DNA from: an uncultured Gammaproteobacteria bacterium
Lineage (GTDB): Bacteria > Patescibacteriota > Microgenomatia > Levybacterales > GWA1-39-11
Reading direction: 5' to 3'
Length of the DNA: 37,995 nucleotides
Assembly: GCA_964519355.1 (NCBI GenBank)
Contig: CAZFJW010000001.1
Location: 1 to 37,995, forward strand
The translations under genes were made by a program, and so were the position numbers. Below are positions 6,621-36,362 of this stretch, in pieces (position 1 is the stretch's first letter; every line of letters starts with the position of its first letter). Under the pieces are notes generated by a model. That model searched no databases, had not been told where the DNA came from, and was given only the letters and a program-made list of their open reading frames with translations.

Positions 6621-7654
6621 TATTTTTCCAATGCTTTTTTCCTTTTCAAACGTTCTATCAAAAAATAATATCCTATTAGACCAAGACCTGCAGGAATAAT
6701 ATCATACGTTATGCGAAATAGTACTGAAATAAATATAGCGTCGTGAAGTGAAACTCCAAAGAGAACAAAAATTCCTATCATCGAAGTATCCTGCACGCCA
6801 ATTCCTCCTGGAATTGGCGCAAAAAGTCCTGCAAGTATTCCAAGTGAGAGTCCAACAACCAACACTCCAAACTGTGCATGAATCCCGAATGCCTCAAAAC
6901 ATAACCAGAGCACAACAACCGCAAGCGACCAGGAAAGAAATATACTAACAATAATCTGAAAAGAAATAGAAAGCCTCATCTGCAATCCCTTTGTTCCAAG
7001 AAGCAGTGCTTGATGGATCGGCTCAAGTCTATGATCAATCTCGCGCCTCGTTATAAAAAATATGATTCTTGAAAAAATATCGAGAATTTTTTCTCGAATT
7101 CTTGGAAAAAATACAATAATTGTTGCAATAAAAAATGTCCCAAGTGATATTTCCAAAATAAGCTTTGCAATCGACTCAAGTGCGGGAGTCAAAAGTCCTT
7201 CCAGAAAAAGCCACGCAAAACCAATTGGAACGAACGCTAAAATTCCAAGAAAAACACAATATGTATAGAAAAATGAAGATAAAACAATAGCATGCGTATT
7301 TTTTATTCCAAAATTACGAAGGTATGCCACGCGAATTGAATTCCCTACAATTCCCCCAACATCAAGAAGTTTTCCAACAGGAATCGTAATAGAACCTATA
7401 TAAAAAATTTCTTTACGGTGAATGTTAAGCGAAAAAATCGAGGCAACAAAAACATATGCAAATGTTGAAAAAAGATACGAAATAAATGCCACACCAACAC
7501 CTGCTGCGACATAGTACCATTTCGCATGACGTAAAATGTAATGTGCCTCCTGAGCTTGAAAATACACTACAATTCCAGCAATTATAATGAATACAAAAAA
7601 TAGCAGAGTTAAAAAGGTAAGGCTATCAAACTTTTTAGGTTTTTTTTGTTTCAT
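6620..7654 (-). CDS. Polytopic membrane protein, UPF0104 / lysyl-phosphatidylglycerol-synthase-TM (flippase-like) family candidate
   Basis: 344 aa with about 8 TM helices and a basic N-terminus. The architecture and Gly-rich GGIGVQD segment fit UPF0104. An ATGA overlap links it to the upstream TfoX-like gene. Confidence 0.5.
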   Translation of the reverse strand: MKQKKPKKFDSLTFLTLLFFVFIIIAGIVVYFQAQEAHYILRHAKWYYVAAGVGVAFISYLFSTFAYVFVASIFSLNIHRKEIFYIGSITIPVGKLLDVGGIVGNSIRVAYLRNFGIKNTHAIVLSSFFYTYCVFLGILAFVPIGFAWLFLEGLLTPALESIAKLILEISLGTFFIATIIVFFPRIREKILDIFSRIIFFITRREIDHRLEPIHQALLLGTKGLQMRLSISFQIIVSIFLSWSLAVVVLWLCFEAFGIHAQFGVLVVGLSLGILAGLFAPIPGGIGVQDTSMIGIFVLFGVSLHDAIFISVLFRITYDIIPAGLGLIGYYFLIERLKRKKALEK

Positions 7655-7980
7655 TTTTCCATATGGACAAGAATCGATTTCTCAATCCATTCGACAAGTT
7701 CTTCCTTGTTTTCAAAAAGTCGTTCTGGCAGTTCCCAATAATTTAATGTAACATCTTTATCCTTTGAACGATAGACAAAAGGATGCGAGCCTTCCTCCTC
7801 ATAGTCTTTTTTATTACTCTCCCCAACTTTGAAATATAACTTTCCGTCAGCAATGAGCCCAAACATCTTTCCATCTTTATAAAATCCATACCCCCCAAAC
7901 ATTGCCCGAGAATTTATCCCAAAAAATCCAGAAAAAACATCATGCAAAATGTAATCATGAAAATCTTTGTCTCTGGCCAT
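7651..7980 (-). CDS. TfoX N-terminal domain protein
   Basis: RAMFGGYGFYKDGKMFGLIADGKLYFKV matches the TfoX/Sxy N-terminal domain signature. Confidence 0.75.
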   Translation of the reverse strand: MARDKDFHDYILHDVFSGFFGINSRAMFGGYGFYKDGKMFGLIADGKLYFKVGESNKKDYEEEGSHPFVYRSKDKDVTLNYWELPERLFENKEELVEWIEKSILVHMEK

Positions 7981-15805: not shown

Positions 15806-16579
15806 ATGCAATTTTTGATCCCAAATAGTGTTAGATGGATCACCTCGACTTTGCTGCCAAAAAATGAGGCGTTTTACCCTTCTCTTTCAAGAAGAATTGA
15901 GCATTCAGACCAACATTTCATAGACAACTTTTATATACAACGCTCTGAAATTGATGAAAAGGATTTTCTTGAAAAAATTTTTCCACTCTATGAAAAAGAA
16001 ATAGTAATTCGAGAAAACTATATTTTCGAACCAGCTGAATTAAAAAATAAATATCTTGAGAGAATTCGAGATGGAAGAAAATATTTTCTGTACGGATTTT
16101 ATCAAAAAGAAACAGAAAGTCTTGTTGGTGGGTTTTTATACAGCATCCCGCATGAAATAATCTCAGTCGCAATGAGATTTTTTGACAGATCTATTAATAA
16201 GAATACAAAAACTCAAGCAACTTTGGATTATTGGGGAGAATGGAAATTTTATGATTTTGTAAAAAATGAAGGGCATAACGCCTATTCTTTAGGGATTGAT
16301 CATTATCCAAATATAGATCGTGCTGGCCTACCGTTGTATAAATTAAAAGTTGGATCACTGCCATGCGTGAATATTAAGTCAGAATCAATTACAATACATC
16401 CTGACCCAAAAAAAATCACAGACCATATGATTTTTTTTACCGATGAGGATAAAAGCGGACATTACAGAAAGTTGAATTGTCTATATAAGAACTACATCCA
16501 AGGAGGAGTTCTTGATGAGCTTGAAAAGGTTACAAAGTGGGCTGGATTGGAATTTTACAAAGAAGAAATAAAATTATGA
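15806..16579 (+). CDS. Hypothetical protein, possibly FemAB/GNAT-like acyl- or aminoacyl-transferase fold
   Basis: 257-aa ORF. The fold suggestion is weak and rests only on a C-terminal G-x-D...GL.LYKLKVG pattern. Its stop overlaps the next gene's ATG (ATGA at 16576-16579). Confidence 0.5.
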   Translation: MQFLIPNSVRWITSTLLPKNEAFYPSLSRRIEHSDQHFIDNFYIQRSEIDEKDFLEKIFPLYEKEIVIRENYIFEPAELKNKYLERIRDGRKYFLYGFYQKETESLVGGFLYSIPHEIISVAMRFFDRSINKNTKTQATLDYWGEWKFYDFVKNEGHNAYSLGIDHYPNIDRAGLPLYKLKVGSLPCVNIKSESITIHPDPKKITDHMIFFTDEDKSGHYRKLNCLYKNYIQGGVLDELEKVTKWAGLEFYKEEIKL

Positions 16580-17328
16580 AAATCAATGGAATAAAAACTC
16601 ATACGATTACAAAAAAAGATACTGACATTACAAAAGTTATATCTAAATATGTAACCCGCTTGGAAGAGAAATCAATTCTCATTATTACTTCAAAAATAGT
16701 TTCTATTTGTGAAGGAAATATGGTATCAACCAGCTCTACTGATAAAGACACGCTTATTCAGAATGAGGCCGAATACTATATTCCAAGGACCAAAAGTCAC
16801 TATAACGTATGTCTTACTATCAACAATGGAATTCTTGCACCATCAGCTGGTATTGACGAATCAAACGCAGACGGCAACTATATACTTTGGCCAAAGGATT
16901 CACAAAAATCGGCCAATTCAATTCGTGAATTTATAACAAATTACTATAAAGTCCAGCATGCAGGAGTTCTTATTATCGATAGTAAAACTACTCCACTTAG
17001 GTGGGGAACTACTGGGATTGCACTTTCATGGAGTGGATTTTTGCCATTGAAAGACTACATCGGCGCACCAGATTTGTTTGGCAGGATTATGAAAATGACC
17101 AATCAAAGTCTTATTGATGGACTAGCCTCTGCTGCCAATCTTGTTATGGGCGAAGGAAATGAAGCAACTCCTATCGCTATTGCTCAAGATCTCTCATTTA
17201 TTGAGTTCGTTGATAGTAATCCAACCCAAGAAGAAATCAACAACCTTATGATAAATCCAAAGGACGACCTGTATGAACCGATCCTTTCACATGCTCCATG
17301 GAAAAAGCGTGTTGACACGAAGCCCTAA
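16576..17328 (+). CDS. CofE-like (F420-0:gamma-glutamyl ligase family) protein
   Basis: ITSKIVSICEG, SAGIDESN, LIIDSKTTPLRWGTTGIALSWSG and KDYIG..DLFGR...ANLVMGEGNEATPIA align with CofE motifs. The start is at Met14 of the track ORF. Confidence 0.8.
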   Translation: MKINGIKTHTITKKDTDITKVISKYVTRLEEKSILIITSKIVSICEGNMVSTSSTDKDTLIQNEAEYYIPRTKSHYNVCLTINNGILAPSAGIDESNADGNYILWPKDSQKSANSIREFITNYYKVQHAGVLIIDSKTTPLRWGTTGIALSWSGFLPLKDYIGAPDLFGRIMKMTNQSLIDGLASAANLVMGEGNEATPIAIAQDLSFIEFVDSNPTQEEINNLMINPKDDLYEPILSHAPWKKRVDTKP

Positions 17329-19498: not shown

Positions 19499-20608
19499 TT
19501 ACATATTTGGAAGAAGACTCTTCCCGCTTATAAGGCGTGCGATATCAACAATTGTAACAACCGCCATTAATCCCAGAAGAAGCGCAAGGCCTACCATGTG
19601 AGCATACGATTCATATTTCGGATTAACTTTTTTCCTGGTAACAACTTCTATCAAAATAAAGAACAATCTTCCTCCGTCAAGTGCTGGGATAGGCAGAATA
19701 TTAAGAACTGCCAAGTTCAAAGATAATAACGCCATGAACCAAAGTACTGCATCAATTCCAAATGATACTGCCTCACCCGTAAGCTGTGCGACTCCAAGAG
19801 GACCAGCAACTCCTTCTGGTTTTTGGCCATGAATTACACCCTCATATACCATGCTTCCAAGTCCATGCACAATAACCCAAGAAAACTTTAGAGCTTCCCA
19901 TGTACCATAAACTGGCGCCTCCAGAAGCGAATATTTACGGACTTCTATTGCACTAATACCGATACCAATTGGACCTTCTCCCTTTGGAAAGTCTTTTCTT
20001 GGAACAAGGGTTACTTCGTTTTGCTTACCATCACTCACGTACACAATCTTCGTAGGCTTACCCAAATGTTTTCTTGTCTCTTTTACAAATTCTTCTGTTT
20101 TTACTATTTTTACCCCATCAACAGATATAATTTGATCATCAATTTGGAGGCCCGAAACGGCAGCCGGACTATTCGGAAGAATTTCTGTGACCCTGATGTG
20201 ATCAGATGGAACTGCAACTCCTCGAGCAGCAAAAAGATAAGAAATAAGACATACTGCGAGGAGAAAATTCATAACAACTCCCGCAATTACAACTGAAAGG
20301 CGCTGCCATGAAGGACGTGCAAAAAATGCACGTTTAAGATCTCCGCCCTTCGCCTCATCCTTTTTATGAGTTATCTTACCTCCCCCAGCATCATCTTCTC
20401 CAAATAATTTTACAAATCCTCCGATTGGCAAGAGATTAATAGAATACAGAGTTTCACCAATTCTTTTGCCCCAAATACGCGGTGGAAATCCATATCCGAA
20501 TTCTTCAACTTTTATTCCGAGTTTTTTGGCTACAATAAAATGTCCGAATTCATGGATAAGAACAAGAACAGAAAGAATGAGAATAAAAACAAGTGCAGTT
20601 ACAAGCAT
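19499..20608 (-). CDS. rseP: Site-2 (M50) zinc metalloprotease RseP
   Basis: HEFGHF motif in TM1, a central PDZ domain and a C-terminal LPIPALDGG motif. TGtTATACT (-10 at 20615-20620, minus strand) lies 6 nt upstream. Confidence 0.9.
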   Translation of the reverse strand: MLVTALVFILILSVLVLIHEFGHFIVAKKLGIKVEEFGYGFPPRIWGKRIGETLYSINLLPIGGFVKLFGEDDAGGGKITHKKDEAKGGDLKRAFFARPSWQRLSVVIAGVVMNFLLAVCLISYLFAARGVAVPSDHIRVTEILPNSPAAVSGLQIDDQIISVDGVKIVKTEEFVKETRKHLGKPTKIVYVSDGKQNEVTLVPRKDFPKGEGPIGIGISAIEVRKYSLLEAPVYGTWEALKFSWVIVHGLGSMVYEGVIHGQKPEGVAGPLGVAQLTGEAVSFGIDAVLWFMALLSLNLAVLNILPIPALDGGRLFFILIEVVTRKKVNPKYESYAHMVGLALLLGLMAVVTIVDIARLISGKSLLPNM

Positions 20609-21185: not shown

Positions 21186-22067
21186 TTATGAACTTTTAGC
21201 AGGTTTTGTCTCTTTTTTAACTGTTGTCTTTTTTGGCTCTTTGGATTTTGCTATCTTTGCAGCAGCTTTTTCTGCTTCCTTTTCAACTCTTTTATTCTCT
21301 GCATCAACGGCTGCTTTTTCTGCTTTTACACTATCCTCTTGTGCTTTTTGTTTGTTCTTTTCACCCTGAATCTGTCCCTCTTCAAAAGCCTCAACAAGAT
21401 AAGTCGTGATCAGTTCAATTGCACCAACTGCATCATCATTTGAAGGAATTGCCCAGTCAACGTCTCGTGGATCAGAGTTAGTATCGACAATTCCTACAGT
21501 ATCGAGTCCCATTTTATGAGCCTCATCGACCGCTGTTCTCTCATGGTGAGTACCGATAATAACAAGTGCTGATGGAAGACCAGGAAGATCTGCAATTCCC
21601 TCATAAAAATTCAATAATTTTTCCCGTTCTCGCCCAAAAAGAAGCACTTCTCTTTTTGTATATCCTTTTTGTTTTTCAGGAACATTGATAAATTCAGTAA
21701 GATCTTTTAGTTTTTTGAAATTCTTTGAAACTTCCTGGTAATTTGTGAGCGTTCCACCGATCCATCGCGCATTGACATAATAAATATTTCGAACACCCTT
21801 GCCCCATGCTTTTGCAACTGCATCTTTTACAACATTTTGTGCCTGTCTTTTGGTTCCAACAACTACAATTGAACCACCTTCACTTGCAATATTTGATAAA
21901 TGCTTACCAGCCTCCTGTAGTCCTTCGAGGGTTTTTTCGAGATTGATAATGTGAATATTGTCACGTTCTTCAAAAATAAAACTGGCGGCTCGTGGATTAG
22001 CACGATTTACCTGATGTCCGAAATGACAACCAGCTTCCAATAATTCTTCTAATGTTACTTCTTTCAT
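21186..22067 (-). CDS. rpsB: 30S ribosomal protein S2 with K/E/A-rich C-terminal tail
   Basis: LLEAGCHFGHQ and other S2 motifs. The last ~55 aa are Lys/Glu/Ala-rich. Confidence 0.95.
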   Translation of the reverse strand: MKEVTLEELLEAGCHFGHQVNRANPRAASFIFEERDNIHIINLEKTLEGLQEAGKHLSNIASEGGSIVVVGTKRQAQNVVKDAVAKAWGKGVRNIYYVNARWIGGTLTNYQEVSKNFKKLKDLTEFINVPEKQKGYTKREVLLFGREREKLLNFYEGIADLPGLPSALVIIGTHHERTAVDEAHKMGLDTVGIVDTNSDPRDVDWAIPSNDDAVGAIELITTYLVEAFEEGQIQGEKNKQKAQEDSVKAEKAAVDAENKRVEKEAEKAAAKIAKSKEPKKTTVKKETKPAKSS

Positions 22068-22242: not shown

Positions 22243-22887
22243 ATGGACGAATCAAAATCTTCTCGGAATAAAAGCCTACTTCTTCTGTCATGTGGAATAC
22301 TCATACTCTTGTTGTCTGCTGTCTCTGTTCTTGTTATCTCCAAGTTATCTAATAATAATTCTTCAACAGCAAAAAATGAACAATCAGGCAAAAAAACGGC
22401 AAAAAATAACTCTAGTTCTTCTCTTTCCACAGATGAGTCAGGCCCAACTATCTCAAACCAGCATGTCTCTCTTAATTTCTCACAAAAATTTATTGATGCA
22501 TCAAAGAATAATGAAAAAGTAAATGTGGATATCATCCTAGACACTGAATCCGCAAAAACAGACGGAGCCATTGTGGAAGTTGTCTATGATCCAGAATCGA
22601 TTTCGGATGTAGATCTCTTCCCTGCCTTTGATACTGATTCTCTCTATGGGGAACAATCCGATGTAACAACCCTTTCCCATAGCCCAGAAGAAGGAAAATT
22701 CGTACTTGGGATCTCAACTTCAGCAGAGCAAGAAGGAGCCGGTAGAATCGCTACTCTATCTTTCAAACCACTCAAATCATCTTCAAAAGATAAAACCCAA
22801 ATTACATTTTCCACCCTTTCCGAAGGCTATTCAGGGTCTGAAAAATACCCAGCCGACCCGGGCTCTCTTGAAGTAAAGATTAAGTAA
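22243..22887 (+). CDS. Membrane-anchored cohesin-like domain protein 1
   Basis: N-terminal TM helix, an N/S/K-rich linker, then a beta domain with VEVVYDPESISDV...GAGRIATLSFKP, a pattern typical of cohesin modules. It is a paralog of 27142-27750. Confidence 0.55.
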   Translation: MDESKSSRNKSLLLLSCGILILLLSAVSVLVISKLSNNNSSTAKNEQSGKKTAKNNSSSSLSTDESGPTISNQHVSLNFSQKFIDASKNNEKVNVDIILDTESAKTDGAIVEVVYDPESISDVDLFPAFDTDSLYGEQSDVTTLSHSPEEGKFVLGISTSAEQEGAGRIATLSFKPLKSSSKDKTQITFSTLSEGYSGSEKYPADPGSLEVKIK

Positions 22888-23375: not shown

Positions 23376-23405
23376 TTGCTATTCTAAAACTTCTTATACT
23401 ATAGT
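23376..23405 (+). promoter_or_regulatory. Sigma70-like promoter TTGCTA-18-TATAGT
   Basis: The -10 box ends 7 nt before ATG 23413, giving a leaderless configuration. Confidence 0.4.
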
Positions 23406-23412
23406 AAAAGAT

Positions 23413-23649
23413 ATGATCGGCGGTCGAGGCTCTAGCTATATTTATTTAGTTCTTCTTGCTATTATTGGAGGTTTTCTTATGGCTGGCGGGTCCCGCATGG
23501 AAAATGCGAATTATCTTACAAAATATGATAATTCGAAGCTAACTCCGACACCTGGGGTCGGTGCATCAATCGCAACTCCGACACCTGGTGTAGTCGGAAT
23601 TCCCGGTGCAGCAACTGCCACACCCACACCAACACCCACAGGACCATAA
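23413..23649 (+). CDS. Small anchored PT-repeat protein (78 aa)
   Basis: MIGGRGSSYIYLVLLAIIGGFLMAGG anchor followed by TPTPG repeats, including a 15-nt perfect DNA repeat at 23541-23555 and 23574-23588. The track start at 23326 is a TTG that coincides with a TTGACA -35-like box. Confidence 0.55.
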   Translation: MIGGRGSSYIYLVLLAIIGGFLMAGGSRMENANYLTKYDNSKLTPTPGVGASIATPTPGVVGIPGAATATPTPTPTGP

Positions 23650-23690
23650 AAATTATAGCGCCTTAGAAAAATAAGATCATGAATATAGAA

Positions 23691-24233
23691 CTAAGCTGCT
23701 TGCGGTAATGGAGTAAAAGTGGAAAGTGCATCAGTAATTTTTGCAATTTGACTGTCATAGCGTGCAACGGCCAGCTCTGCTCCACCTCTAGTAGTGTTGC
23801 CTAGCGCTCTTGTTGACTCTTGAATTTTTTTATCGATCCACTTTTGCGCTGCCTCATCGGCGACTTGAGCACGAACATCCATACCCTGCTGAATATCATT
23901 CTTTAAATCTTTATAATTAGCATCATCTGCGTACTCCTGAGGGGATTCAGCCTTATCTTTGTCACGCAGACGAAACTTTTCAAGGTTATCTTTTTCTTTT
24001 TGGTACTCAGCAATTACACCTGCAGCATTTCCATCTTCAGCTTCTTTTCTTATTTGTTGAAGACGTGCAATCTCTGCCTCAAATCCTCCGCTTGGCATTA
24101 TTACTGCGTGCCCTAATTCTGAATGCTTAAGACCTGTTTGGGCATTTGTAATTTTTGCGTCTATAAGGAAAAATTTATCACCTGAAGTAACAGGCGCTTC
24201 ACCTGTCGACTGAACTTGAGCTTCTAAATCCAT
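23691..24233 (-). CDS. Hypothetical soluble, charged helical protein (180 aa)
   Basis: ORF on the opposite strand inside the surface island. It has no signal sequence and no recognised family. Confidence 0.55.
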   Translation of the reverse strand: MDLEAQVQSTGEAPVTSGDKFFLIDAKITNAQTGLKHSELGHAVIMPSGGFEAEIARLQQIRKEAEDGNAAGVIAEYQKEKDNLEKFRLRDKDKAESPQEYADDANYKDLKNDIQQGMDVRAQVADEAAQKWIDKKIQESTRALGNTTRGGAELAVARYDSQIAKITDALSTFTPLPQAA

Positions 24234-24307
24234 AATTTGAAATAGTTAATAATATATATTGTTATAAGTCAATATAGTCTCTAAAACGATTTATCCAGAT
24301 TTACTTG

Positions 24308-24336
24308 TTGAATAACAAGGACTCTGATACTATAAA
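24308..24336 (+). promoter_or_regulatory. Sigma70-like promoter TTGAAT-17-TATAAA
   Basis: TTGAAT at 24308-24313 and TATAAA at 24331-24336. The predicted leader to ATG 24397 is about 54 nt. Confidence 0.35.
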
Positions 24337-24396
24337 AATATTATTACAAGCCAAAATATCAAACATTATCTTCTCTCACAAAAGGGAGACGCTACA

Positions 24397-24987
24397 ATGA
24401 GTCTCCTGCTTCTTATCATCTTGGTATCGGGAGTCTTTCTCGTAGGTGGGGTTACACCAAAAATGCATGACGACACGCTCGACATGAAGACAACCGGAAC
24501 TGTACAAGGCGTCCAATCCGGAAGTACTGGATCATCTTTTGCCGGAGCGCCCGGCACGAGCAACGGCTCCAAAAAGTCTCTACAGATGAAACAACTTATT
24601 CTAACCACTACAACTCCAACCCCTATTGGCCCTGCTCCTACAAAAACCCCCACACCCACAACGACCAGTCCATCTTCTGAATGGAAAATTACATATAAAT
24701 TTGTCGAGTGCAGAGAAGATGCATCTGCTGGGAATTTAGAACTAACTGGATCCACTTCTGGATACACCATTACTGAAGTAAAATATTCTGGAGAACCCGA
24801 TTGGACATTTGCAGATAGTGAAAAATTTGATGGAGCCAAAACCAAAAATGCAATCATTCTGTTCCCTCAGGAAAAACCATTTATTTGGAGAGTGACGCTT
24901 TTTTCTGGTGGAACATTTACCACCAGAGGCAGCGGTGGAACTTTAAGAGCAACATATGACGGCGCACTTTTTACGAAATGCACGTAG
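24397..24987 (+). CDS. Anchored surface protein: shared N-terminal module, PT linker and unknown beta domain
   Basis: MSLLLLIILVSGVFLVGGVTP...DDTLD anchor, a TTTTPTPIGPAPTKTPTPTTTSP linker, and a C-terminal ~110-aa domain with 2 Cys. AAGGGAG lies 8 nt upstream of the ATG. Confidence 0.7.
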   Translation: MSLLLLIILVSGVFLVGGVTPKMHDDTLDMKTTGTVQGVQSGSTGSSFAGAPGTSNGSKKSLQMKQLILTTTTPTPIGPAPTKTPTPTTTSPSSEWKITYKFVECREDASAGNLELTGSTSGYTITEVKYSGEPDWTFADSEKFDGAKTKNAIILFPQEKPFIWRVTLFSGGTFTTRGSGGTLRATYDGALFTKCT

Positions 24988-25034
24988 TTGATTTAAAATA
25001 TTTTTTGATATATACCTAATACTAGTCATACCAT

Positions 25035-27140
25035 ATGCGTAAAAATATACTTCTCATTTGTGTTATTTTTTTAGCACTATTTACTATTAAAATTAGTGCA
25101 GGACCTACAGAAGCTATTTCTTCATCAACTAATAAGACTCTCCTCGCTCAGTCTGCAACATGCAATGAATCAACATGCTATGGAGTAAAAGTATGTACTG
25201 ATAGAGGCTGTAAAAAGAGAACTGGATACAACTGTACTGGTGTTGATGGAATAAATGACAATGATCGATGCGCCTCAGGAATCTGCATTAATGGTGAGTG
25301 TGTCGATTATAAAAATGAACCACCAGATGGCTACTGCGGAGAACCTGAGGACTGTACAACGGGAATATGTATTAAGAACAAATGCCGATCGGGCCTTCTT
25401 GCACCATATGAGGACTGTGACAATAACTCACAGTGCCTGTCAGGAGTGTGTGTAGATGAATGTAAGCCAACCAAACTTCCGCAAGACTCAAAGTGTGATG
25501 CGAATGATAACGCAGATTGTCTTTCAGGCCAATGTTCTAGATGTGAAGTAAATGGATGTAAGGGAAATTGGACCTGTCAAGGCCGGGATCCGACACCTAT
25601 TCCTACAACCGTTCCCCCAAATTGCGGTACCGAAACCTGTGTCGGGACAGAAATTTGTCTGCAAGTAAATGGATCCCCCCCGCTTCAATGTTTTGCGCGC
25701 AATTCAAGAATAAATGGGTACACTTGTAAAGGCCAGTATGGCACCAGAGAACATGATGTGTGCAGTTATCCTGCACCATGGTGTAACGAAAATTTTAGAT
25801 GCGGACTCACAAATTCCCCTGCTGAGACAGATCCCACAGCAATTCCGGAACCAACTGAAGAACCAGGAGCGGCAACACCTACTAGAACTCCTACTACTCA
25901 ACCTACTGACACTACATCCTGCGAAAATCCTGCAACATGGAGTCCGGGAACTAGCTATTCATGCCAGTTATCAGGATGTCCTGAAGGTGGATCTTTCTAT
26001 GATGGACCAGATAGCGGCTGCCCTGCCTCCAGGCCAACCTGCTGCAAGACTATCATTATTCCCCCTCCTGGTGCTCCAGAAGTCCTAGACTATGAGAGAA
26101 GTTGTACAGATGGTCAAATTTCTTACAAATTTAATTTCACTCCAGGCGAAGATGCAACCTATCATAAATTACAATATGTCGGAGTCGCCAAAGGCGACAC
26201 TACGACTGTACCTGTCGATCAGTACAATAACTATACCTCTGGCATGATTATCCCTCCATCAGGAGGAAATGGATTTGCACCCGATATTCAGGTTAATTAC
26301 GACATTCTCGCATGCAACTCTGCGGGATGTACTCCTGATCCTATGCACTGGTGGTCAATTGGAGACACAGGAAACGCATGCACAGCAGGAGGAGCAACAC
26401 CGACTGGTCCTTGTAGTACTCACGGCGGAGTTAAGGCTGGAACAACTGCAGATGGAGTCTGTGATAGAAAAGTGTTTAACGATACTAATGCCAAAAAAAC
26501 AGTCGCAGAAGGAAATCCTTACTACGGCAAAACATATGAACTCAGATACACGTGTAACGATCCAGGAACATACGATTATATAAATCCAGATACGACCACA
26601 TGCAGCTCCAAAGTATGGTTTGATCCGCCCGCAGGAGGAGGATCAACACCCGGCGGCACAAAGACGTGCTACAAAGACGCCGATAATGACGGCTATGGAT
26701 CAGCAACTGGTGGAACACAGGCCAATCAAACCTCATGCACCGCAGGCTGGTCAGAAAGCATGAGCGATTGCGATGACACCAATGCGTCCGCCAATCCTGG
26801 TCAAAGTGGTGACTTCTATCATCCCCTGGCAAATGGCACTTTTGACTATAACTGTAACGGACAAAATGATAAAAAATATGCAACTCATGGATTTGGCTCA
26901 CTGCCAAAAGAAACATGCCTAGCTGATATGCCGTCTGGGACTGTCGGATTTACAGATGACATGCAATGCGGAACTTCGGGCACATTCAGACTTTGCTATA
27001 AATTTAAAAATACCGCCTGTGGTGGCACTTCAGATTCAGACGCAGTCTCTGATACTATCGGCAAGCCCTGTCCCGCTGGTGCTGCCGGAAGCGGATGGGC
27101 ACTTGTAGACCTGGCAAGCGTCCCGCAGAATTGTAAGTAA
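25035..27140 (+). CDS. Secreted cysteine-rich multidomain protein (701 aa, about 55 Cys)
   Basis: Sec signal peptide. Four C-x-[ST]-G-x-C-x2-4-C modules occupy aa ~66-175, with PT linkers between regions. CYKDADNDGYG...DCDDTNASANPG...DYNCNG at aa 545-612 resembles the putative metal-binding (MopE-type) motif. Confidence 0.8.
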   Translation: MRKNILLICVIFLALFTIKISAGPTEAISSSTNKTLLAQSATCNESTCYGVKVCTDRGCKKRTGYNCTGVDGINDNDRCASGICINGECVDYKNEPPDGYCGEPEDCTTGICIKNKCRSGLLAPYEDCDNNSQCLSGVCVDECKPTKLPQDSKCDANDNADCLSGQCSRCEVNGCKGNWTCQGRDPTPIPTTVPPNCGTETCVGTEICLQVNGSPPLQCFARNSRINGYTCKGQYGTREHDVCSYPAPWCNENFRCGLTNSPAETDPTAIPEPTEEPGAATPTRTPTTQPTDTTSCENPATWSPGTSYSCQLSGCPEGGSFYDGPDSGCPASRPTCCKTIIIPPPGAPEVLDYERSCTDGQISYKFNFTPGEDATYHKLQYVGVAKGDTTTVPVDQYNNYTSGMIIPPSGGNGFAPDIQVNYDILACNSAGCTPDPMHWWSIGDTGNACTAGGATPTGPCSTHGGVKAGTTADGVCDRKVFNDTNAKKTVAEGNPYYGKTYELRYTCNDPGTYDYINPDTTTCSSKVWFDPPAGGGSTPGGTKTCYKDADNDGYGSATGGTQANQTSCTAGWSESMSDCDDTNASANPGQSGDFYHPLANGTFDYNCNGQNDKKYATHGFGSLPKETCLADMPSGTVGFTDDMQCGTSGTFRLCYKFKNTACGGTSDSDAVSDTIGKPCPAGAAGSGWALVDLASVPQNCK

Positions 27141-27141
27141 T

Positions 27142-27750
27142 ATGGAAAAAATTAAAAGTATTATTGTTGGAATTAAAATGTCAAAAAAGAAGTTACTGAT
27201 TGTAATTTCAGTCACAATTATCATTCTTCTCTTGCTTATTGCAGCTCTATTAGGAGTTCGGTCAAAAAATACAAAAACGAAAAACCAAGTACAAGTCCAG
27301 CCTATTGAGACCAAAAAATATTACGCCTCATTAAAGTTTGACAAAGAAACAATTTCACAGAATGAGTCACCGGTTTCAATAACTCTTGATATGGGAGCAA
27401 ATTCTGTAAAAAGCGTTTCATTTACAGTTGAATACGACCCGACACTCCTGACAGTGGACATCGAGCAGGAACTTGACAGCACCTCCGCCCTTTCTTATTC
27501 TCTTGTTCCAGCGGGTAAAATTGCATCACCCAGCACAGCCAAAAAAGGAACAATTCAATATATTCTATCTTTAAAAAATGAGGCTGTAGAACAAAATGGA
27601 AAGGGCAAAATTGCAAAGTTTATATTTAAAACAAAACCTGAATTCACAGGCACTGCTGTTGTAAAGATTGCAGATGTCAAAATTACCTCAGACAAACTTG
27701 GCATAACCGAAGAATTTCTTCCACAAACCAACTCTCTTATAATTCAATAA
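27142..27750 (+). CDS. Membrane-anchored cohesin-like domain protein 2
   Basis: TM anchor, a K/N-rich linker, then SVSFTVEYDPTLLTV...GKGKIAKFIFKTKP. It starts 1 nt after the previous stop; an alternative start is Met13 at 27178. Confidence 0.55.
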   Translation: MEKIKSIIVGIKMSKKKLLIVISVTIIILLLLIAALLGVRSKNTKTKNQVQVQPIETKKYYASLKFDKETISQNESPVSITLDMGANSVKSVSFTVEYDPTLLTVDIEQELDSTSALSYSLVPAGKIASPSTAKKGTIQYILSLKNEAVEQNGKGKIAKFIFKTKPEFTGTAVVKIADVKITSDKLGITEEFLPQTNSLIIQ

Positions 27751-27773
27751 GATATGGTGTGACGAGTGACTAT

Positions 27774-27803
27774 TTGACACATGCATTGATATTCTCATAA
27801 GAT
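27774..27803 (+). promoter_or_regulatory. Sigma70-like promoter TTGACA-18-TAAGAT (leaderless configuration)
   Basis: The -10 box ends 6 nt before ATG 27810. Confidence 0.5.
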
Positions 27804-27809
27804 ATCTGT

Positions 27810-28667
27810 ATGAAGAAAAAATCCGCAAGAAAAGTAACACGCAGAGAGCAGAATAAATTCCTCCACTCCGTACGCCTCTTTAGAGGAGACGCAATGGTGA
27901 CATTACTACTTGCAATAGTTGTCATTTCAGCAGTTTTTTTCGTGGGAGGCGCACTTCCCCAGCAATCCCGTGACACTCAAGATCTTTCAAATGAAGGCGT
28001 TATTGACGAAGACTCGCTCTCCTCTTCAACCAACGGCAATCAACTGCAGCTTAAGACCTTAAAATTCAAAAAATGTTCATCAATTGCCGCAGTCAGCATG
28101 ATGCTCGATCGCTCAGGATCTATGGGCAATGATGGAAAAATCACCAAACTCAAATCAGCAACCCTGTCATTTGCATCAAATTTTGCAGACGACTCGGTTA
28201 TTGGAATTCAGTCTTTTGACTCAAATGACATACGTGAAGACGTTCCTATATCCTACTATAAAGATGTAAAAGATTTGGTCGTAACAAAAGTTAATGCACT
28301 CACCCCAGGCGACAAAACCCCCACGTATCGAGCCCTGCAATTCTCTCGCGATATTTTAATACCCGCAATACCAAAGTTCAGTGACCGAACTTTTAATTTT
28401 ATCTTCCTCTCAGACGGCCTCCCCGTTCCGCCCCAGACAGAAGACCCACGAGGATACTCACCCAATCCTGCTGATGAAATTAAGGCTCTTGGAGTAACTG
28501 TGTACACTATTGGAATCTTCGGACCTGCAGATGCTGTTGCAGGAGCTGAGCTGCTAAAAAGCATTGCATCATCTCCTGATAATTATTTTGCTACGCCAAC
28601 GGGTGACGATTTATCAAGTATTTATGCTGCAATTGGAACAAAAATTTGCAGCAAGGCAACAAAGTAG
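27810..28667 (+). CDS. Anchored von Willebrand factor A domain protein 1
   Basis: Basic leader ...LFRG then DAMVTLLLAIVVISAVFFVGG. MIDAS residues are DRSGSMG, GDKTPT and FLSDG. Confidence 0.8.
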   Translation: MKKKSARKVTRREQNKFLHSVRLFRGDAMVTLLLAIVVISAVFFVGGALPQQSRDTQDLSNEGVIDEDSLSSSTNGNQLQLKTLKFKKCSSIAAVSMMLDRSGSMGNDGKITKLKSATLSFASNFADDSVIGIQSFDSNDIREDVPISYYKDVKDLVVTKVNALTPGDKTPTYRALQFSRDILIPAIPKFSDRTFNFIFLSDGLPVPPQTEDPRGYSPNPADEIKALGVTVYTIGIFGPADAVAGAELLKSIASSPDNYFATPTGDDLSSIYAAIGTKICSKATK

Positions 28668-28762
28668 TTTGTATAGTGTAGTATGTGGAATGGAGAATGT
28701 ATGATGCGCAATCTTTTTCAGATCAAGCATAATTCCTAATACATAATTCATTGTACAAAACC
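28664..28762 (+). repeat. ORF-less miniature copy B of the heptad-repeat inverted element
   Basis: Seven in-phase heptads GTAGTTT GTATAGT GTAGTAT GTGGAAT GGAGAAT GTATGAT GCGCAAT span 28664-28712, with G1 and T7 invariant. Right arm is CATAATT CCTAATA CATAATT CATTGTA CAAAACC (28728-28762). The left arm overlaps the vWA-1 stop codon. Confidence 0.7.
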
Positions 28763-28769
28763 CCAAATA

Positions 28770-28799
28770 TTGACAACCCCGACACATACTATCTAGAAT
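28770..28799 (+). promoter_or_regulatory. Sigma70-like promoter TTGACA-18-TAGAAT (leaderless configuration)
   Basis: The -10 box ends 5 nt before ATG 28805. Confidence 0.5.
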
Positions 28800-28804
28800 G
28801 ATGT

Positions 28805-29791
28805 ATGCCCGCTAAATCTTCTCGTATTCGGAGAAAAACAAAAACTGTCAAGAAAAAAACATCAGTAAAAAAACCCGCTTCATCGCTTTGGTTTTTTCCA
28901 AATTCTCTTAAAGTTCTTAAGGGTGATGCCTCAATCTTTATATTATTTGGAATAATACTTATCGGCGGACTCTTTATGGCTGGTGGCTTTTTCCCTAGAG
29001 TCTCAACTGACACACTTAACACTGACGCTGGAGAATCACAAATTGATCCAGATTCTCTCCCAAAGGGCGACTCAAAAGAAGCACTGCAGCTCAAGACCCT
29101 CAAATTTAAAAGCTGTACCCAGGTCTCCGCAGTTGAATTTTTACTGGATAATTCAGGATCTATGGGAGGGTCAGGATTTGATCCTGCCAAAATGACCAAC
29201 CTCAAAGCGGGTGTTACAACGTTTTCAGAAAAATTATCTGACACATCGGTTATAGGACTGAGAACTTTTTCTGACTATACAACCCTAGACGTTCCTTTCG
29301 GATATTACAAAGACAATAAGTCCTCCTTTGCTACAGCAATTGCTGGAATGACTCCTGATGGATCTACGCATCAAAAGTCAGCTTTTGAGGCAGCCAAAAC
29401 AGATCTCGAAGGTGCAGTCACAAAATATCCAAAGTACGATTTTAATCTCATATTCTTTTCTGATGGAATTCCAGAAACTGCAGCGGGAAATAGAACTTGT
29501 ACAGGCACCGTGTGTGATCCATCAAATCCTGCAGGATGTAGATGCATGGCACCATCCCAAGACCCAAGAGCAGTTGCAGAAGAAATCAAAGCAATTAAAA
29601 ACTCATCAGGCAGCAATATAAGAATATTCTCAATTTTGCTGTACGATCCAGTTCGTGATAGTTTTGCCGAAACCGAATTTAAGGCTCTTATGAAAAGTGT
29701 TGCAACGGATTCTTCAACATACTTTGAAACAACCGATCCAGATGATTTAAAGAGTCTTTTTGATTCTGTTATCAAAAAAGTTTGTGGATAA
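28805..29791 (+). CDS. Anchored von Willebrand factor A domain protein 2
   Basis: A 40-aa basic leader ...LKVLKG then DASIFILFGIILIGGLFMAGG. MIDAS residues are DNSGSMG, PDGST and FFSDG. It has a Cys-rich insert CTGTVCDPSNPAGCRC and is a tandem paralog of 27810-28667. Confidence 0.8.
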   Translation: MPAKSSRIRRKTKTVKKKTSVKKPASSLWFFPNSLKVLKGDASIFILFGIILIGGLFMAGGFFPRVSTDTLNTDAGESQIDPDSLPKGDSKEALQLKTLKFKSCTQVSAVEFLLDNSGSMGGSGFDPAKMTNLKAGVTTFSEKLSDTSVIGLRTFSDYTTLDVPFGYYKDNKSSFATAIAGMTPDGSTHQKSAFEAAKTDLEGAVTKYPKYDFNLIFFSDGIPETAAGNRTCTGTVCDPSNPAGCRCMAPSQDPRAVAEEIKAIKNSSGSNIRIFSILLYDPVRDSFAETEFKALMKSVATDSSTYFETTDPDDLKSLFDSVIKKVCG

Positions 29792-29835: not shown

Positions 29836-30546
29836 ATGCCAAAAAAGGACGAATCAATTTTATTGCCCAAACACGTCGCTATTATTCCCGATGGGAACAG
29901 ACGCTGGGCAAAGGAACACAACCTGCCCTCACTCCAAGGACACAGAAAGGGTTTTCAAGTTGCACAGGTTTTGGCGCGTAAAATTCGTGCATCAGGAGTT
30001 CCCACGCTTACTTTTTGGGCTTTTTCGACGGAAAATTGGAAAAGAGACAGTAAAGAAGTTGGATACCTCATGCAATTTTACAGTAAGTTTCTTGAAAAAA
30101 ATCTTCTCAGCATGGATGATGAAAAGGTTAGGTATATCCACCTTGGAAGAAAAGACAGAATTCCTGAAAAATTACTGGCAAAGATTGAAAACATCGAAGA
30201 AAAAACCAAAAAATTCAAAAAATACTACCTTAATTTTGCACTCGACTACGGAGGTCATGATGAAATTTTAAGAGCAGTTAAAAAAATAGTCGGCAAAGGC
30301 CTTAAAAGCGATGAGGTAACCGAGCAGCTTATTGCAGAAAATCTTGATACAGCGCAAGAACCTTATCCAAACCCAGATCTTGTCATCCGCACCAGTGGCG
30401 AAAATAGAACCTCAGGATTTATGCCATGGCAGGCAGCATACGCAGAGTACATTTTTATAGATAAATATTTTCCCGAGTTAACTGAGGGAGATATAGACTG
30501 GGCACTGGCTGAATACTCAAGAAGGCAAAGAAGATTTGGTAAGTAA
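29836..30546 (+). CDS. uppS: Undecaprenyl-diphosphate synthase (cis-prenyltransferase)
   Basis: HVAIIPDGNRRWAK, FAFSTENWKR-like and IRTSGE.R.S.F motifs. Confidence 0.9.
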   Translation: MPKKDESILLPKHVAIIPDGNRRWAKEHNLPSLQGHRKGFQVAQVLARKIRASGVPTLTFWAFSTENWKRDSKEVGYLMQFYSKFLEKNLLSMDDEKVRYIHLGRKDRIPEKLLAKIENIEEKTKKFKKYYLNFALDYGGHDEILRAVKKIVGKGLKSDEVTEQLIAENLDTAQEPYPNPDLVIRTSGENRTSGFMPWQAAYAEYIFIDKYFPELTEGDIDWALAEYSRRQRRFGK

Positions 30547-30550
30547 AATT

Positions 30551-30585
30551 GCAGGATGTAGCATGTAGAACGCAGTATGCAAAAA
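30551..30585 (+). repeat. Left heptad-repeat arm flanking the four-helix-bundle gene
   Basis: GCAGGAT GTAGCAT GTAGAAC GCAGTAT GCAAAAA. The ATG at 30577-30579 lies inside the fourth heptad. Confidence 0.7.
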
Positions 30586-30945
30586 ATCCAGTCATTTACA
30601 GACTTAAACGCCTGGAAAGAAGCGCACGTCCTCGTTCTCAATATCTACAAAGAAACGAAAAAATTTCCCGATGATGAAAAATTTGGACTTACCAACCAGA
30701 TGCGAAGATCTGCCGTCTCAATAACTTCAAATATTGCAGAAGGTTTCTCAAGAAAGGGAACGAAGGAAAAAATCCAATATTGTTATTTGGCTCTTGGGTC
30801 TCTAGCCGAACTACAAAATCAACTTGTAATTTCAAGAGATATTGGTTATATTTCTAATACAGATTTTCAATTACTCGCAGAGAAATCAATTATAGTTAGC
30901 AAATTAATTAATGGGCTTATTAAATCAAAATCGCATACAACATAA
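30577..30945 (+). CDS. Four-helix-bundle protein (23S rRNA intervening-sequence protein / Avd family)
   Basis: FTDLNAWKEAH...FPDDEKFGLTNQMRRSAVSITSNIAEG...LGSLAELQNQL is characteristic of this family. Confidence 0.85.
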   Translation: MQKIQSFTDLNAWKEAHVLVLNIYKETKKFPDDEKFGLTNQMRRSAVSITSNIAEGFSRKGTKEKIQYCYLALGSLAELQNQLVISRDIGYISNTDFQLLAEKSIIVSKLINGLIKSKSHTT

Positions 30946-34706: not shown

Positions 34707-36362
34707 CTATTTCTTTTTTAATCCTTCAAGAAGTTTTTTCTCTTTTTCTTTAATTTTCTCAGCAGTTCCTCGTCTGGCAAAATGATAGTCATTCATATCT
34801 ACTTGCAAAAATGATCCAATCAAAGGATACACTTTTTTTACAAGATCAGCCTTTTTTTGTTCTACTTTTCTATAATCTGGATGACCCTGAGGAATAGTTC
34901 TCAGCTCTATTTCCCAGAAGAGACTCCTCAAATTCTGTCTTTGCACAAAACGAACTCTATGCGACATTGTAACAACATATTGTGCCAGAACCGGATCTTT
35001 TTTTTCAATTTTATAGAATAGTTCCTCTGCCTGATCAAGTGCTGATTCATACATTTTCTGGAATCTTGTTCCTTCGAATTCAGGCGGAAGTGTCCTCCCA
35101 TGCACAACAGTAAACAGTTCTTTTTGCTGTGTAAGAATCCTATGACGATGCAAATCGCGCCAAGATCCGATACTCATACAAATATCAAAAGCAACAGTTG
35201 CATGCTCAAAAGCGCGAGGAACTTTATACCAGCGAGCGCGCCTTTTTGAAAGAACTTTCTCAAGTAATTTCTTTTTTTGTGTATCACTCATTTTTTTAAC
35301 ATGACCAACTATCTCATCAAATCCCTCATGCGCTGCAGGGAAAATAAGTCCCGCAAGAATTGCATCCTCACCATTCTTGTCATAAGAAATAAGTCTGACA
35401 TCCTCTTTTGATCCGGCACTCTTTTTTGGAATAAATTCTTTTGGGATTTCTTTTTGCGAATTAAGATAATCCCGATATTCTATTGCAGCTTCCCCATGTG
35501 CTCGTCGTAAAAAGGAAGGAATTATTTTCTCAAGTTCCACAAGCCCAGCTTCAGCAGCCCATCGAATTTCTCCAAGTCTGTGATCCAGAGATCTTGCAAC
35601 TAGATATTCAAATGCCTGACCATTCCCAAAAAATGCAACTTGGGACAGCGTTGCCATTGGCAAAAGCCCGCGAACTGTATCATATGCTTTTGCTTTTAAA
35701 ACAAGAACATTTTCTTCAGGAAAATGAGATTTTAATTCTTCAAAATATTCCCCCACCATTTTTGTATATGTATCAAAAAGGTTGTCCATTACCCTTTTGT
35801 ATTCCTTCTCAAGACCTATTTTCTCCAGATCCGGATCTATGTAATACCTATATTTTCCTTTTATTTTTGATGAGTAATCTACATATCTCGTTGATTTCTC
35901 AATTGGAGCAAGTCCGAGCCTCATATCCTCAAAGTGTTTTATTGCAATTTGTGAAAGCGAAGAATATATAAGATGTGCTCCCGCCATTTGTGCAATCGAA
36001 TCATCTCCGTATTGAGCAAGCCACTTCACATAAAATTCCCTCCCTTTGGGATTGGAGAAAATAAGCTCTACTGGATACCTATGAAAAAAGGAGATAAGTC
36101 TTTTTAATGATGTTCCATACCTGCTTTTTTCCTCAATAAACGGGCCGATAAATTCTCTTAAAAATATTGCTCTCAGGTCATCTTTTGCACGTGAAGTCCT
36201 AGAACATAATGCGCCAATTACTTCAGGTGGAAGAAATGAGACTGCAAATGCGTTTTTATCACTGTTTGTAAAGAATGGCTCGATGAGAAATTTTTCTTTT
36301 TTTGAAAACTCAGGCCTATCAAAAAGTGGAGAGAAAGAATTAAGAGTATTATTTTTTTTCAT
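34707..36362 (-). CDS. thyX: Long (551-aa) ThyX-like FAD-dependent thymidylate synthase
   Basis: ThyX-type RHR motif (WRDLHRHRILTQQ) in the C-terminal half and a second ThyX-like half at the N-terminus. It sits in an operon with dut and tmk. Confidence 0.65.
   Translation of the reverse strand: MKKNNTLNSFSPLFDRPEFSKKEKFLIEPFFTNSDKNAFAVSFLPPEVIGALCSRTSRAKDDLRAIFLREFIGPFIEEKSRYGTSLKRLISFFHRYPVELIFSNPKGREFYVKWLAQYGDDSIAQMAGAHLIYSSLSQIAIKHFEDMRLGLAPIEKSTRYVDYSSKIKGKYRYYIDPDLEKIGLEKEYKRVMDNLFDTYTKMVGEYFEELKSHFPEENVLVLKAKAYDTVRGLLPMATLSQVAFFGNGQAFEYLVARSLDHRLGEIRWAAEAGLVELEKIIPSFLRRAHGEAAIEYRDYLNSQKEIPKEFIPKKSAGSKEDVRLISYDKNGEDAILAGLIFPAAHEGFDEIVGHVKKMSDTQKKKLLEKVLSKRRARWYKVPRAFEHATVAFDICMSIGSWRDLHRHRILTQQKELFTVVHGRTLPPEFEGTRFQKMYESALDQAEELFYKIEKKDPVLAQYVVTMSHRVRFVQRQNLRSLFWEIELRTIPQGHPDYRKVEQKKADLVKKVYPLIGSFLQVDMNDYHFARRGTAEKIKEKEKKLLEGLKKK

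Follow-up and report, generated by a model that had tools for sequence, protein, structure and literature searches.

A conserved, prepilin-like N-terminal stem before different head domains at a fixed locus of Levybacteria

Four genes in a stretch of 37,995 nucleotides (contig CAZFJW010000001.1 of assembly GCA_964519355.1; this whole stretch is called the window hereafter) encode proteins, P1 to P4, that carry a homologous N-terminal stem in front of different heads or of no head at all. The stem begins with a basic leader ending in glycine, Gly(-1), continues with a hydrophobic tract that runs from position +1 to a second glycine, Gly21, and in P2, P3 and P4 goes on after Gly-Gly with x-x-Pro-(K/R/Q), a polar spacer and the motif LQ[LM]K[TQ]L. 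We tentatively favour, at somewhat less than an even chance, the explanation that this stem is a degenerate prepilin-type (class III) signal-anchor and stalk for the display of variable heads; a plain uncleaved membrane anchor is nearly as likely.

All four genes lie on the plus strand. P1 (23413-23649, 78 aa, ATG at 23413) reads MIGGRG/SSYIYLVLLAIIGGFLMAGG, the slash marking here and below the end of the leader or a putative cleavage site; residues 1-6 form the leader and residues 7-26 (nt 23431-23490) a hydrophobic 20-mer ending in GG, followed by a Pro/Thr-rich tail without LQ motif or head. P1 is a real gene, since it belongs to an 18-member cluster at 90% identity and is 92-95% identical between strains. 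P2 (24340-24987; annotated ATG 24397, 196 aa) has KGDAT in frame directly upstream of the annotated ATG, a hydrophobic tract that reaches to G18 and is followed by PK, LQMKQLIL (nt 24580-24603), a Pro/Thr linker and an all-beta sandwich head with Cys105 and Cys195. P3 (27810-28667, 285 aa, ATG at 27810; ...RLFRG/DAMVTLLLAIVVISAVFFVGG) consists of a basic leader M1-G26 (nt 27810-27887), a hydrophobic 21-mer D27-G47 (nt 27888-27950), P50, a disordered spacer, LQLKTLKF (residues 79-86, nt 28044-28067) and a von Willebrand factor A (vWA) domain in residues 93-283 with the metal ion-dependent adhesion site (MIDAS) DRSGSM, and has cysteines at C89 and C280. P4 (28805-29791, 328 aa, ATG at 28805; ...KVLKG/DASIFILFGIILIGGLFMAGG) has a basic leader M1-G40 (nt 28805-28924), a hydrophobic 21-mer D41-G61 (nt 28925-28987) followed by FFPR, LQLKTLKF (residues 94-101, nt 29084-29107) and a vWA head with DNSGSM. 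MKKKSARKVTRREQNKFLHSVR is an example of a leader sequence. The coordinates and the four N-terminal readings of the first-pass annotation of this DNA hold on the sequence, as do the exact spacing of 19 residues from Gly to Gly-Gly in P2, P3 and P4 (18 in P1) and the stretches SLQMKQLIL, QLQLKTLKF and ALQLKTLKF in P2, P3 and P4, respectively.

Several observations establish the common descent of the four stems. P3 and P4 are full-length paralogues (34% identity, E 1e-44), and their alignment begins 10 residues ahead of the conserved Gly and hence includes the hydrophobic stem. Furthermore, a 29-column profile of the segment from Gly to Pro-Lys, trained only on relatives from outside the window, was scored against all 433 six-frame open reading frames (ORFs) of the window of at least 40 aa. 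P2 scored 44.7 bits, P3 39.9 bits, P4 28.6 bits and P1, the weakest of the four, 14.1 bits (E 7.7e-4), the best other ORF reaching 4.8 bits and both cohesin-like membrane proteins as well as all transporters of the window scoring below 0. Only P4 and P1 test the profile independently, since its training sequences included close relatives of P2 and P3. Short hydrophobic stretches are often alike and P1 has only about 26 residues in common with the others, but a profile that picks P1 to P4 alone out of 433 ORFs, an alignment of P3 with P4 from before the Gly through the stem to the C-terminus and a family present in about 20 genomes leave chance resemblance practically no room as an explanation of the four N-termini: it is refuted for P2 to P4 and weakly possible for P1.

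The stem is also found far beyond the window. A word-indexed protein search with the module alignment returned 7 short fragments only and was replaced by an exhaustive search, in which alignment A1, as a profile of 71 positions spanning the entire stem, was compared with 1.84 billion cluster representatives (E<=1e-3). It matched 121 proteins, with the module N-terminal in every one. A search for related loci used a 10-sequence alignment, and the 35 loci were then scanned with the stem profile; in about 20 genomes a single locus adjoining rpsB, usually before glyA, contains 1-5 module genes, all of them on the strand divergent from rpsB. According to the record titles, the named sources of module proteins are Levybacteria, Levyibacteriota, Microgenomates or Patescibacteria. 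Because the module occurs in 121 representatives and about 20 genomes and its Gly junction is conserved, the profile scan that the first-pass annotation had proposed found neither of the first two outcomes named there as speaking against its idea, that is a module confined to the four genes or a [KR]G junction without conservation. Several third-party (TPA) metagenome-assembled records (L013, L016, L021-L023, L025-L028, L030 and L031 among the related loci) are titled 'uncultured Gammaproteobacteria bacterium' despite a Levybacteria-type locus with rpsB and module genes, plus glyA where the contig extends that far; this title is probably a placeholder or a mislabel. No model in Pfam or NCBIfam covers the stem, and no paper describing it was found in the literature.

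The relatives of P3 (65 proteins of 255-325 aa, the named ones from Candidatus Levybacteria) share a layout of basic tail, [KR]G (GPG in one clade), about 19 hydrophobic residues in a gapless segment, [GR]G-x-x-P-[KR], a variable acidic spacer, LQLKT[LI]KFKxC and vWA. In the 9 relatives of P2, the first ~75 residues are near-invariant and the ~110-residue Cys...Cys head is highly variable. In other members the stem precedes a vWA domain that follows either straight after the LQ motif or after a Pro/Thr linker, several Cys-rich heads, one CHAP domain, P2-type heads, one type starting CxGKPVIYLYPE and one type with GG..G..I[KR]VWYNDE; headless members consist of the stem and a Pro/Thr tail only. 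Thus, the proposal that one stem is mounted before different heads is borne out for vWA, Ig-like β-sandwich, Cys-rich, CHAP and headless proteins. In three proteins (L010 7949-9247, L019 5826-7061 and L029 10923-12302) a Cys-rich insert of ~170 residues (CCDxGxGDxCxP...) lies between the membrane segment and the LQ motif, and their heads start C-K-P-[AV]-[VI]-Y-L-Y-P-E, in common with those of proteins P0128 and P0145. The heads of P3 and P4 are vWA domains with MIDAS (DxSxS) and a Rossmann-like fold: PF00092 matches P3 with E 1.3e-10 and P4 with E 9.9e-10, PF13519 matches P4 with E 8.5e-12, and Foldseek pairs the P3 domain with integrin I domains and the pilus-tip adhesins Mfa5 and SpaC (E ~1e-10 to 4e-9).

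The LQ motif has the consensus L-Q-[LM]-x-[TS]-[LIF]-x-[FL] with an invariant Gln. It is separated from the Pro-Lys by a disordered, acidic or polar spacer of 25-45 residues (in L010:7949-9247 it stands ~170 residues past the membrane segment) and is followed by the head directly or by a Pro/Thr linker and then the head. The motif belongs to the stem and not to the heads because it is disordered in P3, separated by Pro/Thr from many heads and kept in headless members. It could be a candidate docking strand, for example for cohesin-like partners, or a processing or cross-linking site.

The head of P2 varies far more than its stem. Comparison of the window with L032 and L034 shows strains that agree to 100% in the proteins P3, P4 and uppS and yet to 93% in the P2 stem, to 66% in the Cys-rich protein of the locus and to only 37% in the P2 head; the second cohesin-like protein (27142-27750) is 39% identical to its counterpart in L034. 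From these comparisons, certain surface genes seem to be exchanged like cassettes or to diversify very rapidly. A diversity-generating retroelement was considered as the cause of the variation in the P2 head and rejected, as no reverse transcriptase was seen in the window and the divergence covers the whole head. Between uppS and glyA, beside the hypervariable locus, a gene (30577-30945) encodes a 23S rRNA-intervening-sequence protein or bAvd-like four-helix bundle; this gene had prompted the idea of a retroelement.

For P2 the junction of leader and hydrophobic tract lies upstream of the annotated start, KGDAT being encoded in frame at 24382-24396. No ATG, GTG or TTG is present in this frame between the stop codon TGA at 24325-27 and the ATG at 24397; a conserved ATT ATT is found at 24340-45 with TATAAA just before it, suggesting that P2 has a non-canonical start (ATT?) or is leaderless. 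Its relatives P0074, P0077 and that in L013 have an upstream ATG, and in two relatives the called starts lie upstream and take in SKGDATM or NRGDATM. Moreover, L034 encodes RGDA as CGCGGGGATGCC (CGC GGG GAT GCC) where the window has AAGGGAGACGCT (AAG GGA GAC GCT). Since 6 of the 12 bases differ and the peptide [KR]GDA is nevertheless kept, selection appears to act on the protein and the upstream KGDA of P2 appears to be translated. A reading of KGDA in P2 and P3 as a mere Shine-Dalgarno sequence (AAGGGAGAC and AGAGGAGAC before ATG) was rejected because in P4 KGDA is encoded by AAGGGTGATGCC without a following ATG and because of the base changes in L034.

Upstream of the other three genes promoter-like elements end close to the start codons: TTGCTA-18-TATAGT (23376-23405, plus strand) 7 nt before the ATG of P1, TTGACA-18-TAAGAT (27774-27803, plus strand) 6 nt before that of P3 and TTGACA-18-TAGAAT (28770-28799, plus strand; 11/12 matches) 5 nt before that of P4. 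A short member of the family in L021 likewise has a -10-like TACAAT 6 nt before its GTG start, its boxes lying at about 16550-16585. With strong -35/-10-like boxes at a distance of just 5-7 nt from the start codons, P1, P3, P4 and the L021 member may be transcribed as leaderless mRNAs.

What could such a stem be? A class III signal is defined as a hydrophilic leader ending in Gly or Ala that is followed by 21 mainly hydrophobic residues (PMC8179133), and in its leader Gly and its hydrophobic tract the stem agrees with this formal definition. Gly(-1) fills 60 of the 66 occupied cells in the alignment of the P3 family and 121 of 129 among 162 unique aligned sequences (94%), and only one position of the stem is more conserved. 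It is preceded at -2 by K/R or P, the junctions in the window being RG/S (P1), KG/D (P2), RG/D (P3) and KG/D (P4), and it stays at the boundary while the leader varies in length from 3 to 45 residues. The tract from +1 to Gly21 is gapless and 21 residues long in P2 to P4 and in the family (20 in P1), with a Gly near its middle; Gly21 is found in 76 of 77 cases and Pro24 in 72 of 77. The other membrane anchors of the locus and its apparently ordinary Sec signal peptide have none of these features.

In addition, one member of the family looks like a canonical prepilin. This 107-aa headless protein (L021:16586-16909), encoded between a cohesin-like gene and glyA, reads EKG/FSMIEVIFVVVLMLSVLVWSG-IFSPPK...NLQITDLKL, with Gly21 in register and the canonical junction KG/FSMIEV. 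It matches the stem profile with E 8.5e-7, passes TIGR02532 (18.4 bits, cut-off 16.3) and falls just short of PF07963 (21.1 versus 21.2). It is because of the class III architecture together with this one canonical relative that we read the stem as a degenerate class III signal.

A considerable body of findings weighs against this reading. The absence of Glu at +5, already remarked upon in the first-pass annotation, extends to all 162 unique aligned members, none of which has an acidic residue at +4 to +6; position +5 is occupied by L/I/F/Y/V/T/S in the family, with the L021 protein as the only exception. At +1 mostly S/G/T/D are found and not F/M, although several members have F or Y. The canonical GFxxxE member is limited to a single species-level lineage, some gene callers place its start downstream of the motif, and the motif could be convergent; as a metagenome scan for further GFSMIE relatives found one near-identical copy only, the bridge to canonical prepilins stands on that one lineage. 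The proposed comparison with TadE/TadG and type IV prepilin profiles produced nothing, PF07811, PF13400, PF07963 and TIGR02532 matching no window protein at E<=1. Neither did TIGR02532 match any of 45 module segments at E<=10, PF07963 any of 50 further members at E<=0.01, TadE/TadG profiles the 45 segments, or archaellin profiles these segments or the window proteins, and in the PDB a profile search with the module found nothing but random membrane helices, those of sodium channels among them. In the AlphaFold model of P3 (44-sequence alignment, mean pLDDT 84) the helix comprises residues 28-45 only (18 residues), residues 46-92 including LQLKTLKF are disordered (pLDDT <60), and the vWA domain stands separate (pLDDT >93). 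Neither an alpha1C nor a pilin head is present in this model, nor is an alpha1 of ~50 residues packed on a pilin head; the P2 model, which covers the head only, is a confident 7-strand beta-sandwich with generic Ig/FnIII-like matches. Finally, no pilus-assembly or A24-peptidase genes were found within +-10 kb in L007, L009, L010 and L012 (Pfam gene tables), and no pilus, Tad or A24-peptidase genes in the 38-kb window. Pilin genes can be unlinked from pilus loci, and missing linkage is therefore weak evidence. Of the features of prepilin-type class III proteins, the leader Gly and the 21-residue tract are present, and Glu5, the profile matches, the pilin fold and the linkage to pilus genes are absent. 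Among the NCBIfam matches of the 45 segments, three weak ones to sortase B targets (E 0.028) were judged to be hydrophobic noise.

Is such a signal plausible without Glu5? Degenerate class III signals lacking this residue are known from the tip pilins PilA of Streptococcus sanguinis and GspK of the type II secretion system (T2SS), that of PilA being missed by all tools (PMC9934059), and archaeal class III signals often lack an acidic residue at +5 (PMC4371748). Moreover, the peptidase PilD is widespread in the Candidate Phyla Radiation (CPR; PMC6744442), and one complete Microgenomates genome encodes it (PMC7143001). We infer that the stem most likely inserts N-in/C-out via Sec and that, on the class III reading, the leader would probably be removed after the conserved Gly by the prepilin peptidase of the cell. 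The hydrophobic 21-mer would then either anchor the protein in the membrane or form the stem in an assembly of the tip or pseudopilus type; the missing Glu5 speaks against incorporation into a filament body. Interchangeable extracellular heads, namely a vWA adhesin (P3, P4), a hypervariable Ig-like sandwich (P2) or nothing but a Pro/Thr tail (P1), would in this way be held outside the cell membrane, the stalk beneath them being flexible and in part rich in Pro/Thr.

A serious contender, somewhat behind the class III signal in probability, is a plain signal-anchor that stays uncleaved, the proteins being type II membrane proteins with no more than a tether and stalk. The likeness to class III signals would then be superficial, and the inner Gly and the outer Gly-Gly/Pro would be helix caps or hinges taken over from a common ancestor. 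An uninterrupted hydrophobic segment of 19-21 residues with a strongly basic N-flank, and an isolated 18-residue helix followed by a disordered stalk in the AlphaFold model, are what such a protein would have, as ordinary type II signal-anchor proteins combine the same basic N-tail, membrane helix of ~20 residues, extracellular stalk and head. The lack of Glu5, of prepilin profile matches and of nearby pilus genes fits as well, and since all members are homologous, shared positions can be inherited. Yet Gly(-1) is 94% conserved while the residues of leader and membrane segment fall to ~30% identity, the other signal-anchors of the locus lack it, and its fixed place at the end of a leader of 3-45 residues is prepilin-like; a canonical GFxxxE relative exists; and, in contrast to ordinary type II anchors, Gly(-1), Gly21 and Pro24 are near-invariant and LQLKT is kept across unrelated heads. 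With a class III anchor and with a plain anchor alike, the function would be the same, the display of heads.

Among the closest known systems are modular pilins such as PilB of Streptococcus sanguinis (Raynaud et al. 2021), which consists of a pilin module and vWA. These have the same leader ending in Gly with 21 hydrophobic residues, the same vWA/MIDAS adhesin or other effector modules behind a common carrier and the same genomes with multiple paralogues and different heads, and modular pilins with vWA modules are known in CPR phyla, too (PMC8179133). Of what defines a modular pilin, P1 to P4 have the extra modules and lack the IPR012902 signature and the pilin module. Unlike modular pilins, the stem has no IPR012902/TIGR02532 signature, no Glu5 and no alpha1C/beta-sheet module, Gly-Gly, Pro and a disordered spacer following straight after the hydrophobic segment; it has in addition the conserved LQLKT and is not linked to pilus genes. 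PilA and GspK likewise have no Glu5, and PilFind and profile tools do not see them; PilA occurs in pili as a pilin all the same, and the filament tip is the place assigned to both (PMC9934059). However, their pilin fold is complete and their genes belong to pilus loci. Archaeal class III non-pilins, like the sugar-binding proteins of the Sulfolobus bindosome and FlaFind positives, resemble the stem in their [KR]-G/A junction, their frequent lack of an acidic +5 and their polar or small +1 residue (PMC2910488, PMC4371748). They also carry one stem type on unrelated globular heads, as the archaeal substrate-binding proteins do (PMC2910488), and their genes often lie away from assembly genes. In contrast to the stem, they are archaeal, processed by PibD and devoid of an LQLKT motif, and a sequence relationship was not seen, TIGR02537 giving no significant match. 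Known already are modular pilins and class III signals on proteins other than pilins; new are a Glu5-less stem with LQLKT motif, its restriction to Levybacteria, the fixed locus and the cohesin neighbours.

These neighbours have to be considered in their own right. In 7 of 11 in-locus cases, the next same-strand gene downstream of a cohesin-like gene is a module gene, and a place directly upstream of a module gene is usual for cohesin-like genes, as with 22243-22887 and 27142-27750 in the window and in L013, L021, L022, L023 and L027. Dockerin-bearing secreted proteins are encoded in related genomes (L007 19178-20803; L009 18707-20164, the latter recognized by eye), which suggests a cohesin-dockerin-type surface network in Levybacteria. 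A more far-reaching idea, which we regard as unlikely, is that the stem, LQLKT and the cohesin-like proteins make up an undescribed surface-display or fibre system of Levybacteria, processed by the prepilin peptidase, with exchangeable heads for host attachment. In such a system the LQLKT strand would be captured, for instance, by a cohesin-like partner or by neighbouring subunits, and by analogy the system would amount to a bacterial version of the archaeal bindosome or to a new type of filament.

Less probable again is a cut by signal peptidase I after Gly21 ([VSTA]-[GR]-G/), the stem then being a long Sec signal peptide and the released protein being held at the surface otherwise, for example through LQLKT bound by the neighbouring cohesin-like proteins. 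The residues at -3 (V/S/T/A) and -1 (G) of this site fit the -3/-1 rule, the order of cohesin-like and module genes would agree with it, and so would an LQ motif that is conserved yet outside the head folds. But the hydrophobic core of 19-21 residues exceeds that of typical signal peptides (~7-15), the residue at -1 is Gly in 76 of 77 cases and never Ala, whereas the apparently ordinary signal peptides of the organism, as read by eye, end ISA/G and AFA/Q. The conserved Pro and Lys at +3 and +4 would be unexpected after such a site, three members have Pro at +1, and the SipW-cognate signal TIGR04088 was not among the NCBIfam matches at E<=1 or E<=10.

The pairing of a TadG N-terminus with vWA is known, as the first-pass annotation remarked, and a further possible reading is that of TadE/TadG-type pseudopilins of a Tad/Flp pilus. 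The stem does start with [KR]G-[S/D/G]-x-x before a hydrophobic segment and a vWA head, the same short Gly-hydrophobic N-terminus as in proteins with a TadE/TadG-like domain; but besides the failure of PF07811 and PF13400 in the window neither profile matched 50 further members at E<=0.01, Glu is missing at +5/+6 and no tad genes are found in the window or in relatives with Pfam gene tables, so that the assignment was rejected on the profile evidence and is most improbable.

The surface-protein locus is bounded by rpsB (21186-22067, minus strand), and its plus-strand end is at uppS (29836-30546). Upstream of P1 a cohesin-like single-pass membrane protein is encoded on the plus strand (22243-22887; PF00963 E 0.0024, under the curated cut-off), the membrane segment of which is unlike the module type. 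A second single-pass membrane protein with a cohesin domain (27142-27750, plus strand; PF00963 E 1.2e-5, over the curated cut-off) is encoded 60 nt upstream of P3. A Cys-rich secreted protein of 701 aa (25035-27140, plus strand) belongs to the same locus; its N-terminus resembles, as read by eye, an ordinary Sec signal peptide (MRKNILLICVIFLALFTIKISA/G) and provides an internal contrast to the module. Inside the locus also sits, on the minus strand, a gene for an acidic 180-aa protein without assigned function (23691-24233), which looks helical by eye, has no family match and is 76-90% identical between strains.

The remainder of the window consists of housekeeping genes. A link of the module to the site-2 protease gene rseP (19499-20608) was considered and dismissed, the order rpsB-tsf-frr-uppS-rseP being a common and widespread housekeeping arrangement. 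Likewise, an island of foreign DNA is not supported, for the GC content of the locus is not distinctive and the locus is syntenic across the lineage; the word 'island' used at first is misleading for a locus that is conserved, though variable, and that occupies a fixed site in Levybacteria. Elsewhere in the window, 7651-7980 encodes a protein with a TfoX N-terminal domain (E 1e-29); TfoX regulates competence and type IV pilus genes in other bacteria. Furthermore, the 551-aa product of 34707-36362 contains two ThyX (Thy1) stretches and is apparently a flavin-dependent thymidylate synthase that has been duplicated or fused; its gene adjoins those for dUTPase and thymidylate kinase.

Attachment to other cells is the presumed way of life of CPR bacteria, and little is known of how hosts are recognized and held. 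The locus represents a lineage-wide solution in which a fixed chromosomal site encodes up to five surface proteins on one common stem, some of their heads being swapped or very fast diverging. If the stem is an anchor only, it makes a useful, though ordinary, family definition. If it is a substrate of the prepilin peptidase, the idea of the modular pilin would be widened to proteins that IPR012902 and PilFind miss and that have no pilin fold, and the stem would provide a sorting signal for the surface proteomes of CPR bacteria.

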